From: a virus
Taxonomy: Duplodnaviria; Heunggongvirae; Uroviricota; Caudoviricetes
Virus record (IMG/VR): IMGVR_UViG_2529293146_000007
Location: 1 to 4,168 of that record
DNA: 4,168 nt
Strand: one strand, 5' to 3'
In this document: one piece after another, positions 1,303 to 4,168 of the stretch
Layout of the letters: each line of letters opens with the position of its first letter
Position numbering within the stretch: position 1 is the stretch's first letter
Position numbers and translations under genes: made by a program
Notes under the pieces: generated by a model
What the model was told of the DNA's origin: nothing
Seen by the model: the letters and a program-made list of their open reading frames with translations, nothing else
Databases searched by the model: none

Positions 1303-1355
1303 TTTCTGGTGGCGTTTAGCGGTATCAGTTTTACTCCGTGACTGCTCTGCCGCCC
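1303..1355 (+). ncRNA. dicF: DicF small regulatory RNA (Hfq-dependent sRNA known to repress ftsZ and other targets)
   Basis: The 53-nt stretch tttctggtggcgtttagcggtatcagttttactccgtgactgctctgccgccc, followed by TTTTT, matches my recollection of K-12 DicF, with an apparent difference or two in the 5' third. It sits about 170 bp upstream of dicB, as in Qin. Identification is from memory, not a covariance-model search. Confidence 0.8.
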
Positions 1356-1529: not shown

Positions 1530-1718
1530 ATGGAAACGTTATTACCAAACGTTAATACGTCTGAAGGTTGTTTTGAAATTGGTGTCACTATCAGTAACTC
1601 AGTATTTACTGAAGATGCCATTAACAAGAGAAAACAAGAAGGGGAGCTATTAAATAAAATATGCATTGTTTCAATGCTGGCTCGTTTACGTCTGATGCCA
1701 AAAGGATGTGCACAATGA
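1530..1718 (+). CDS. dicB: DicB cell-division inhibitor (MinC-dependent FtsZ-ring inhibitor), 62 aa
   Basis: Protein METLLPNVNTSEGCFEIGVTISNSVFTEDAINKRKQEGELLNKICIVSMLARLRLMPKGCAQ is near-identical to my recollection of K-12 DicB. ATG at 1530 with GAGGA (1518-1522) and a 7-nt spacer; stop TGA at 1716-1718. The track ORF 1425-1718 is an upstream in-frame extension with no supported start. Confidence 0.9.
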   Translation: METLLPNVNTSEGCFEIGVTISNSVFTEDAINKRKQEGELLNKICIVSMLARLRLMPKGCAQ

Positions 1719-1906
1719 ATTCAGCATTTGCGCTTGTTCTGACAGTTTATCTTGTTTCCGGAGAGCCAGTTGATATTGCAGTCAGTGTTCACAGGACAAT
1801 GCAGGAATGTATGACTGCAGCAACCGAACAGAAAATTCCCGGTAACTGTTACCCGGTCGATAAAGTTATTCACCAGGATAATAACGAAATCCCGGCAGGT
1901 CTTTAA
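1715..1906 (+). CDS. ydfD: YdfD-like small protein (DUF1482-type prophage protein), 63 aa
   Basis: Protein MNSAFALVLTVYLVSGEPVDIAVSVHRTMQECMTAATEQKIPGNCYPVDKVIHQDNNEIPAGL matches my recollection of K-12 YdfD. ATG at 1715-1717 overlaps the dicB stop (ATGA, 1715-1718); aagga at 1702-1706. Confidence 0.9.
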   Translation: MNSAFALVLTVYLVSGEPVDIAVSVHRTMQECMTAATEQKIPGNCYPVDKVIHQDNNEIPAGL

Positions 1907-1998
1907 AACAGTTCCGTAATAAACATCCGCTTTCATTCTTATATGCCAGCAATGGCAGGGATTTGTTCACCCTTAAATCTGTAATGAGGTAAAACAAA

Positions 1999-3003
1999 AT
2001 GAGTAAAGTCTTTATTTGCGCCGCCATTCCGGACGAACAGGCAATAAAGGAAGAAGGTGCTGTGGCTGTAGCCACAGCCATTGAAGCTGGCGACGAACGC
2101 CGTGCTCGAGCAAAATTTCACTGGCAATTCCTGGAGCATTATCCGGCTGCTCAGGACTGCGCTTATAAATTTCTTGTTTGCGAGGATAAACCTGGTATAC
2201 CCCGCCCTGCCCTCGATTCCTGGGATGCTGAATATATGCAGGAAAACCGCTGGGATGAGGATTCTGCTTCTTTTGTTCCGGTTGAGACTGAATCCGATCC
2301 GATGAACGTCACTTTTGACAAGCTGGCCCCTGAAGTACAGAACGCTGTCATGGTTAAGTTCGACACATGTGAAAACATCACCGTTGATATGGTTATTAGC
2401 GCGCAGGAATTGTTGCAGGAAGACATGGCAACATTCGACGGACATATCGTTGAAGCGTTGATGAAAATGCCAGAAGTTAACGCCATGTATCCGGAGCTTA
2501 AGTTGCATGCCATTGGGTGGGTTAAGCATAAATGTATTCCTGGTGCTAAATGGCCCGAAATTCAGGCAGAGATGCGCATCTGGAAAAAACGTCGCGAAGG
2601 TGAACGCAAGGAAACCGGAAAATACACGTCTGTTGTTGATCTCGCCCGCGCCAGAGTCAATCGACAGTACACTGAAAATTCAGCAGGAAATATCTGCCCT
2701 GTCATTGCTGTCATTCATCGCGAATACAAGCAGACATGGAAAACACTGGATGACGAACTGGCCTACGCTCTCTGGCCTGGTGATGTGGGTGCCGGAAACA
2801 TTGACGGCAGCATCCATCGCTGGGCAAAAAATGAAGTTATCGACAACGACCGCGAAGACTGGAAGCGTATCTCGGCATCGATGCGCAAACAGCCTGATGC
2901 CCTTCGCTACGACCGCCAGACTATTTTTGGCCTTGTCCGTGGGCGTCCGATCGACATTCACAAAGATCCTGTGGCACTGAACAAATATATTGCGAATACC
3001 TGA
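1999..3003 (+). CDS. ydfE: Conserved prophage protein of unknown function, 334 aa; YdfE-like by position
   Basis: Long uninterrupted ORF; ATG at 1999 with GAGG (1986-1989) and a 9-nt spacer; stop TGA at 3001-3003. It lies immediately downstream of ydfD, as ydfE does in Qin. The name is by synteny and memory only; all overlapping track ORFs are shorter and out of frame or antisense. Confidence 0.8.
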   Translation: MSKVFICAAIPDEQAIKEEGAVAVATAIEAGDERRARAKFHWQFLEHYPAAQDCAYKFLVCEDKPGIPRPALDSWDAEYMQENRWDEDSASFVPVETESDPMNVTFDKLAPEVQNAVMVKFDTCENITVDMVISAQELLQEDMATFDGHIVEALMKMPEVNAMYPELKLHAIGWVKHKCIPGAKWPEIQAEMRIWKKRREGERKETGKYTSVVDLARARVNRQYTENSAGNICPVIAVIHREYKQTWKTLDDELAYALWPGDVGAGNIDGSIHRWAKNEVIDNDREDWKRISASMRKQPDALRYDRQTIFGLVRGRPIDIHKDPVALNKYIANT

Positions 3004-3023
3004 CTACAAAGGGCGTGTTTGAG

Positions 3024-3368
3024 ATGAAGGAACAGATCTGGGCGCTGTTGATGTTCTCTCGTCGTCAGTACCAGAAACTGATGCAGTGGAAACGGGTATC
3101 TGATATCGCAAAAACTGAATGCGCGGTGGAAGTTGAACCATCTGTAGAGCGTGAGGGGCCGTTCTATTTCCTCTTCGCCGATAAGGATGGCGAAAAATAC
3201 GGTCGCGCAAACAAACTTTCTGGTCTGGATAAGGCGCTGGCTGCTGGGGCTACTGAAATCACGAAAGAAGAATATTTTGCCCGCAAAAATGGTACATACT
3301 CGGGTTTACCGCAAAATGTTGGTGCCTCTGAAGACCGCACAGCCAGAGCCGGTAAAAGTTACCGCTGA
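3024..3368 (+). CDS. Hypothetical protein, about 114 aa; C-terminal boundary doubtful
   Basis: ATG at 3024 (the track starts at GTG 3015), 21 nt after the upstream stop. The last ~25 codons overlap a stretch where frame 1 reads more protein-like, including a QPEPV motif at 3340-3354. Confidence 0.5.
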   Translation: MKEQIWALLMFSRRQYQKLMQWKRVSDIAKTECAVEVEPSVEREGPFYFLFADKDGEKYGRANKLSGLDKALAAGATEITKEEYFARKNGTYSGLPQNVGASEDRTARAGKSYR

Positions 3369-3693
3369 CGAAGTAAACAAAATTATGCAGGCAGCCAATA
3401 TCAGCCAGCCTGACGCCGATAAGTGCTTGCTGTATCACGTGGTGAATTTGTTGAAGGGATTAGTGACCCGAATGATCCGAAATGGGTTAAGGGGATCCAG
3501 ACCCGCGATTCTGTGAACCAGAACCAGCATGAATCGGAACGGAACTACCAGAAAGCGGAACAAAACAGCCAAATGCGTTACAAAACGAGCCAGAAACGAA
3601 ACAGCCTGAACCAGTGGTGCAACAGGAAGTGGAAAAATCTGCACCGCTTGCGGTCAGAGCGGTGGCGGCAACTGCCCTGATTGTGGTGCGGTG
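3289..3693 (+). other. Frame-mosaic, repeat-rich region; best guess a frameshifted or decaying gene, possibly continuous with flanking ORFs, or alternatively overlapping small genes
   Basis: By eye, the frame with common E. coli codons changes: frame 1 (about 3289-3445), frame 0 (about 3423-3560), frame 2 (about 3560-3640), then frame 1 again (3610-3918). No frame is open throughout. Each apparent junction sits at a short homopolymer (A5 3285-3289, T3 3447-3449, A4 near 3561, A5 3633-3637). Candidate standalone ORFs are frame 1 3289/3316/3385-3516 and frame 0 GTG 3423-3680, none with a good Shine-Dalgarno. Confidence 0.3.
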
Positions 3694-3918
3694 ATGGGTG
3701 ACGCAACATACCAGGAAATATTCGATGGAGAGTATCAGGTTGAAGTTCAGGAAGATGATCCGGAGGAAATGGAAGGCGCTGCGCATCCGCACAAGGAGAA
3801 CACTGGCGGCAATCAGCATCATGCTAGCGATAGTGAAACTGGCGAGGCGTCAGATCCCTTAATTAAGGTGAACGGTCATCATGATCTCACATCCACCAGC
3901 AGGGCGGTGATCATCTGA
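3694..3918 (+). CDS. Small acidic protein, 74 aa from ATG 3694; possibly the C-terminal part of a longer frameshifted protein
   Basis: Frame 1 is open from 3610 to the stop at 3916-3918 with good codon usage. The first ATG is 3694 (GTG at 3691) with a weak Shine-Dalgarno. The stop overlaps the exonuclease ATG (TGATG, 3916-3920). A CxxC-x7-CxxC motif lies in frame just upstream of the ATG (3640-3684). Confidence 0.45.
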
Positions 3919-4168
3919 TGATCGACCTTGAAACCATGGGAAAAAATCCTGATGCCCCGATTATCTCAATAGGTGCAATATTTTTCGATCCGCAAACCGG
4001 AGATATGGGACCGGAATTTAGTAAGACTATCGATCTGGAAACTGCTGGCGGAGTCATTGATCGGGACACCATTAAATGGTGGCTTAAGCAATCACGCGAA
4101 GCGCAATCTGCCATTATGACCGATGAAATCCCGTTAGATGATGCACTGTTACAATTGCGGGAATTTAT
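3918..4168 (+). CDS. DnaQ-like DEDD-family 3'-5' exonuclease, N-terminal 83 codons; 3' end outside window
   Basis: ATG at 3918, open to the window end. The N-terminus MIDLETMG carries the Exo I D-x-E motif typical of DnaQ/ExoX-type exonucleases common in lambdoid early operons. The start is coupled to the upstream stop. Confidence 0.85.
   Translation, partial: MIDLETMGKNPDAPIISIGAIFFDPQTGDMGPEFSKTIDLETAGGVIDRDTIKWWLKQSREAQSAIMTDEIPLDDALLQLREF

Follow-up and report, generated by a model that had tools for sequence, protein, structure and literature searches.

The DNA analyzed here (hereafter the window) is a stretch of 4,168 bp that makes up the complete contig AQBA01000047.1 of draft assembly GCA_000359015.2. 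Because DicF lies upstream of dicB and ydfD, the contig was assigned to a Qin/Tritos-like lambdoid prophage, of which it is the left-operon end. From position 1999 to the window end, homologs have one gene on the plus strand, which runs past the contig end (Table 1). The list of open reading frames (ORFs) gives for this part an ORF of 334 aa (1999-3003), then a series of short ORFs spread over the three frames, and finally an ORF from 3918 that holds the exonuclease domain. On the minus strand, a 127-aa ORF (747-1130), a possible gene, lies between ydfC and DicF and extends into the end of the 383-757 ORF; it is without a Pfam hit and has been called as a gene in several assemblies.

Positions 1-1900 matched several other draft genomes at 100% identity, among them L003-L006, in which the 823-aa gene is intact. 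For positions 1-2000, the best match among 5426 complete RefSeq E. coli genomes was about 95.5% identical, or 96.3% where only part of the stretch matched; the closest full-length hits included ETEC-type serotypes O169:H41 and O6:H16. From the 100% identity to drafts and the roughly 95.5% identity in complete genomes, the complete-genome set seems to lack the prophage variant of the upstream part. For positions 3000-4168, the best identity was 94.3% among the 4123 complete E. coli genomes that matched.

Table 1. Features of the window, with positions counted from its first base.
Feature	Position	Strand	Remarks
DicF antisense sRNA	1304-1355	+	Rfam RF00039, 68.6 bits, full length
dicB	1530-1718
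ydfD	1715-1906
Prophage exonuclease gene	1999-4168	+	823-aa ORF in Tritos and L003-L012; here nine frame segments through eight deletions, almost certainly artifactual
Apparent merged consensus of two paralogous alleles (L006-like; L009b/Tritos-like)	2110-3965	+	Letter order, gap columns, allele switches
1 missing nt	about 2991	+	Upstream of 3289-3918
1 missing nt	about 3022	+	Upstream of 3289-3918
2 missing nt	about 3095	+	Upstream of 3289-3918
2 missing nt	3331-3336	+	Alleles GACACGACC / GAAGATTCA
First QPEPV	3340-3354	+	Residue 450 of intact protein; QPEPV in allele 1, QPEPI in allele 2
1 missing nt	3423-3424	+	Alleles GATGAACTGC / GATAAGTTGC
1 missing nt	3569-3570	+	Alleles GCCAAAAT / GCACAAAT
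Second QPEPV	3602-3616	+	Residue 538; frame matches first copy in intact alleles
1 missing nt	3636-3637	+	Alleles AAAAGATC / AAAAAGTC; window AAAAATC
CxxC-x7-CxxC motif	3640-3684	+	Residues 551-565; in both alleles, in frame there
1 missing nt	3906-3910	+	Divides acidic stretch from exonuclease domain; not in AQBA01000035.1
Start of Rv2179c-like / DnaQ-type 3'-5' exonuclease domain	3918-4168	+	PF16473

The exonuclease gene and its intact homologs

The initial annotation of the window had proposed that homologs might encode one continuous protein across the frames, and this was borne out: in phage Tritos (TRITO_27) and in the loci L003-L012, the product is 823 aa and is read from one continuous ORF. 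The Tritos gene is 2472 nt long, with DicF, dicB and ydfD upstream and xis and int downstream. Megablast hits to the stretch came from 27 phage records and from 4123 of the 5426 complete E. coli genomes searched (median of one and maximum of eight matching places per genome), and in all matched records a single gene annotated as "exonuclease" spans it. The intact protein consists, in order, of a probably YdfE-like N-terminal part, a Pro/Glu/Gln-rich linker, a four-cysteine motif, an acidic stretch and an Rv2179c/DnaQ-like 3'-5' exonuclease domain. In Pfam searches, PF16473 (Rv2179c-like) matched residues 642-813 of the intact L006 protein (E=4e-66) and the window fragment 3918-4166 (E=4e-29), and a weak PDB match to the exodeoxyribonuclease 8kel covered residues 643-776. 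PF27430 and PF27432 (YdfE_N and YdfE_C) are precomputed Pfam hits for the 334-aa fragment and for all 823-aa homologs, and were not returned by our own hmmscan search. None of three small fragments inside 3289-3918 matched Pfam, as expected of linker sequence. Many phage records (H1, H3, H18-H21 and H25) label this gene "exodeoxyribonuclease VIII / RecE", which is probably annotation carry-over, because the intact protein gives Pfam matches only to an Rv2179c-like / RNase_T (DnaQ-fold) domain of the 3'-5' exonuclease type.

Within 3289-3918, it was confirmed that QPEPV is encoded twice in different frames (CAGCCAGAGCCGGTA and CAGCCTGAACCAGTG), that the four differences between the copies are all synonymous third-position changes, and that the CxxC-x7-CxxC motif lies after an in-frame stop (TGA, 3607-3609) and before the next ATG (3694). 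In the intact protein, QPEP[VI], QPEPV and the four-cysteine motif are all in the same frame, and CTACGQ[ST]GGGNCPDC is translated in frame in both alleles and in Tritos; judged by its sequence, this motif is a conserved, in-frame putative zinc ribbon of the linker. Because both QPEP motifs, the cysteine motif, the acidic stretch and the exonuclease domain are collinear in the intact protein, positions 3289-3918 are the middle of one long gene. The gene of roughly 300 aa that had been suggested for this region is actually the middle of the 823-aa exonuclease gene, and the ATG at 3918 corresponds to an internal methionine. Stable, separate small ORFs had also been considered, and no homolog with the same stops or frame arrangement exists. 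The real content of the region is an ordinary, widespread prophage exonuclease gene that is functionally little characterized.

Missing bases and the two-allele signature

Relative to Tritos, the window has eight indel events, every one a deletion in the window, with 10 bases lost in total, and the same 10 bases at the same eight sites are absent relative to every homolog. When these bases were restored, 726 stop-free codons extended from 1999 to the window end. The loss at 3331-3336 is the switch out of the frame of the ORF at 3024 into that of the first QPEPV, and the loss at 3636-3637 divides the second QPEPV from the cysteine motif. The initial annotation had placed the frame switches at homopolymers; these tracts exist (A5 at 3633-3637, TTT at 3447-3449 and A5 at 3285-3289), but alignment to the intact homologs put the switches elsewhere, and only one of the eight losses (3636-3637, abutting the A5 run) touches a homopolymer. 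All eight lie at adjacent differences between two natural alleles that can be aligned with an offset, as in GAAGATG versus GAGAATG, AAAAGATC versus AAAAAGTC or GCCAAAAT versus GCACAAAT, and at these places a gapped alignment of the alleles pairs bases with gaps, leaving columns half occupied.

We aligned the window with 11 natural sequences, which form two allele groups that are about 15% apart in 2936-3965, and found that the window switches between these groups at the level of single sites. It is unlike all 11 sequences at just 14 columns (10 deletions and 4 substitutions), and its remaining differences from any one homolog are states of another natural allele. Among the 5426 complete E. coli genomes, none carried both parental alleles beside an identical upstream region; therefore, draft loci from other strains were taken as allele proxies. 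The proxies, L006 and L009b, only approximate the parental alleles of this strain. At the sites in 2110-3965 where these two differ, the window carries whichever base comes later in the alphabet (T>G>C>A) in 169 cases, the earlier base in 12 and a gap in 10 (binomial p=1e-36), and it switches alleles 82 times over 180 informative intervals. Five natural sequences that were treated alike as controls had the later base at 88-96 sites versus the earlier base at 93-100, with 0-20 switches. By pair type, the counts for 2936-3965 were 46:3 for A/G to G, 44:1 for C/T to T, 18:1 for A/C to C, 13:2 for A/T to T and 9:0 for C/G to G.

In a dynamic-programming test, the rule was that a mismatch column gives the later letter and a base/gap column gives nothing. 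This rule rebuilt the 1030-nt segment 2936-3965 from the two 1040-nt alleles with the fewest possible gap steps (20) and a single exception, the T at 3648, which is a variant also found in L007. The opposite rule required 132 exceptions, and either allele alone 66-69. All 11 earlier-letter sites in this segment lie inside shifted alignments beside deletions. Farther upstream, the window is pure allele 1 to about 2058, and at 2061-2109 it follows allele 2 tract-wise, against the letter rule. The start of the merge, at about 2110, is approximate, because in AQBA01000035.1, a second contig of the same assembly, at each of the 10 sites equivalent to those within 1675-2044, the base fits "allele 2" as well as "later letter".

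Origin of the broken reading frame

The second contig, AQBA01000035.1, is identical to the window over 2110-3788 and shares seven of the eight deletions there. Beyond this stretch, from 3789, it is pure allele 2, lacks the 3906 deletion and continues into xis and int, and in its equivalent of window 1675-2109 it has the later letter at 23 of 23 allele-discordant sites. Since this contig shares the merged stretch and then diverges, the merged block appears to have been written once and joined to different unique flanks. Among 153 billion catalogued gene positions, the 85-aa fragment product was present in these two contigs only, the 334- and 74-aa fragments were present in the window contig only, and no broken product was found in any other assembly. 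The products called in locus 1-2788 of AQBA01000035.1 (334, 114, 85 and 255 aa) are almost certainly artifacts as well. A literature search on the assembly accessions returned no match.

Altogether, the frame mosaic is almost certainly a consensus artifact, in which two diverged copies of the exonuclease gene were merged base by base during assembly; we infer the merge step from the footprint that it left in the contig. The strain would have the dicB-ydfD-exonuclease region in two paralogous copies, both from lambdoid (Qin/Tritos-like) prophages, that differ by about 15% where the exonuclease gene encodes the linker, and the assembler would overlap these copies and derive one consensus from an effectively 1:1 pile-up. 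A tie between two bases would go, by a deterministic rule, to the one later in the alphabet (T>G>C>A), and base/gap ties would go to the gap, with nothing emitted. The product would be a chimera known from no natural genome and 10 bases short at eight places, and the 823-codon gene would read as short ORFs in three frames because of these missing bases. Every indel would be a deletion because base/gap ties go to the gap, and under the same rule each offset alignment would cost exactly one base, or two at two larger patches. Each of the two real gene copies is probably intact.

The ties may have arisen from each copy being represented once, e.g. by super-reads or unitigs. Assemblies of this accession series presumably come from a center with a super-read-based pipeline; each copy would then enter as one sequence, so that ties would be systematic. 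We know of no mutational or recombinational process that picks bases by letter order on one strand, as a consensus caller that breaks 1:1 ties does, and therefore the site-wise T>G>C>A pattern is best regarded as not biological. An assembly error had been among the options listed in the initial annotation, and this option holds, although the mechanism appears to be a two-copy consensus and not homopolymer miscalling.

The other readings that had been offered, i.e., recent decay, slippage-based phase variation, programmed frameshifting and overlapping genes, fit poorly with a frame arrangement that occurs in no other assembly and with substitutions that follow letter order. It is very unlikely that the gene is a genuine, recently decayed pseudogene that gained eight small deletions in this strain. 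Prophage genes do decay, and L007 carries a single frameshift in its copy of this gene; in the window, none of the eight indels is an insertion, and the gene is interrupted from 2991 onward. However, besides the deletions only four columns differ from all 11 natural sequences, each deletion falls exactly at an allele-discordant, shift-alignable spot, and the fragments are absent from every other assembly. Furthermore, a pseudogene should have a single ancestral haplotype as its background, whereas the background here is a two-allele merge, with ancestry that alternates site-wise under T>G>C>A, and mutation and recombination cannot yield such a pattern. A physically real chimera, produced by extensive heteroduplex formation between the two prophage copies and subsequent, strongly strand-biased patch repair that left a hyper-mosaic frameshifted pseudogene in two genomic places, is extremely unlikely. 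A natural recombinant mosaic was ruled out by L007, L008, L009a and L001, which are tract-wise mosaics with a letter order of about 50:50.

Homopolymer-length sequencing errors confined to the region would be in keeping with a contig from a draft assembly and with the one lost base that abuts the A5 run at 3633-3637. Yet seven of the eight events lie outside homopolymers, two of them are 2-nt losses of mixed bases (CA/AG), and such errors would leave the 169:12 letter-order bias and the 82 allele switches unexplained, which makes this explanation hardly credible. The chance that programmed ribosomal frameshifting, slippage-based phase variation or genuinely overlapping small genes account for the arrangement is vanishingly small. 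Coding-like sequence does occur in all three frames, and the QPEPV copies differ synonymously only; however, homologs from thousands of genomes and phages have a single frame throughout, and the frame arrangement is confined to one assembly. The true break points have neither a slippery heptamer nor a repeat tract, the junctions being at mixed-base sites, and eight frame changes in 900 nt are implausible for any known recoding.

In L007 (AQAW01000039.1, 9618-12088), which by its nearby accession prefix is possibly from the same project as GCA_000359015.2, a single gap of 1 nt, close to the position that corresponds to window 3116-3121, splits the exonuclease into 383 and 359 aa. This gap sits in a small patch of bases unique to L007, which elsewhere is a tract-wise mosaic without letter-order bias. 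Either a true frameshift or an error at this spot may explain the split.

Consequences for the assembly and comparison with known systems

For biology, little is at stake, as the underlying gene is a common prophage exonuclease that is intact elsewhere, with its QPEP and four-cysteine motifs in one frame. The result matters as a quality flag: on the merged-consensus reading, AQBA01000047.1 and AQBA01000035.1 hold fabricated sequence, and the database proteins of 334, 114, 85, 74 and 83 aa would be artifacts, which should therefore be taken neither for pseudogenes or small ORFs nor for candidates of recoding. Other draft assemblies could be scanned with a simple, reusable diagnostic that combines the T>G>C>A footprint with deletions at offset-alignable sites.

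The window resembles the collapsed-repeat misassemblies of paralogous prophage genes in short-read drafts in that it is a short contig bounded by repeat edges, with mixed copies and spurious frameshifts, and in that another contig of the assembly repeats its merged stretch. In contrast to the usual case, its footprint is unusually clean, with a strict tie-break and lost base/gap columns, so that it can be regenerated with one exception. The 823-aa exonucleases of Tritos (TRITO_27) and of E. coli Qin-like prophages (putative YdfE_N and YdfE_C domains and an Rv2179c-like domain) represent the same gene in the same neighborhood. Their DNA is 93.7-94.3% identical to window 3000-4168, and the repaired window translation is collinear with them; however, they are intact single ORFs, whereas the copy in the window appears to be a two-allele chimera short of 10 bases. 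The ydfE gene of the E. coli K-12 Qin prophage, probably an N-terminal remnant of this gene cut off by an insertion element, belongs to the same family and is an example of a real disruption in a cryptic prophage. It is presumably truncated cleanly in every K-12 genome, whereas the window has eight small deletions with an algorithmic signature, and these occur in one draft assembly only.
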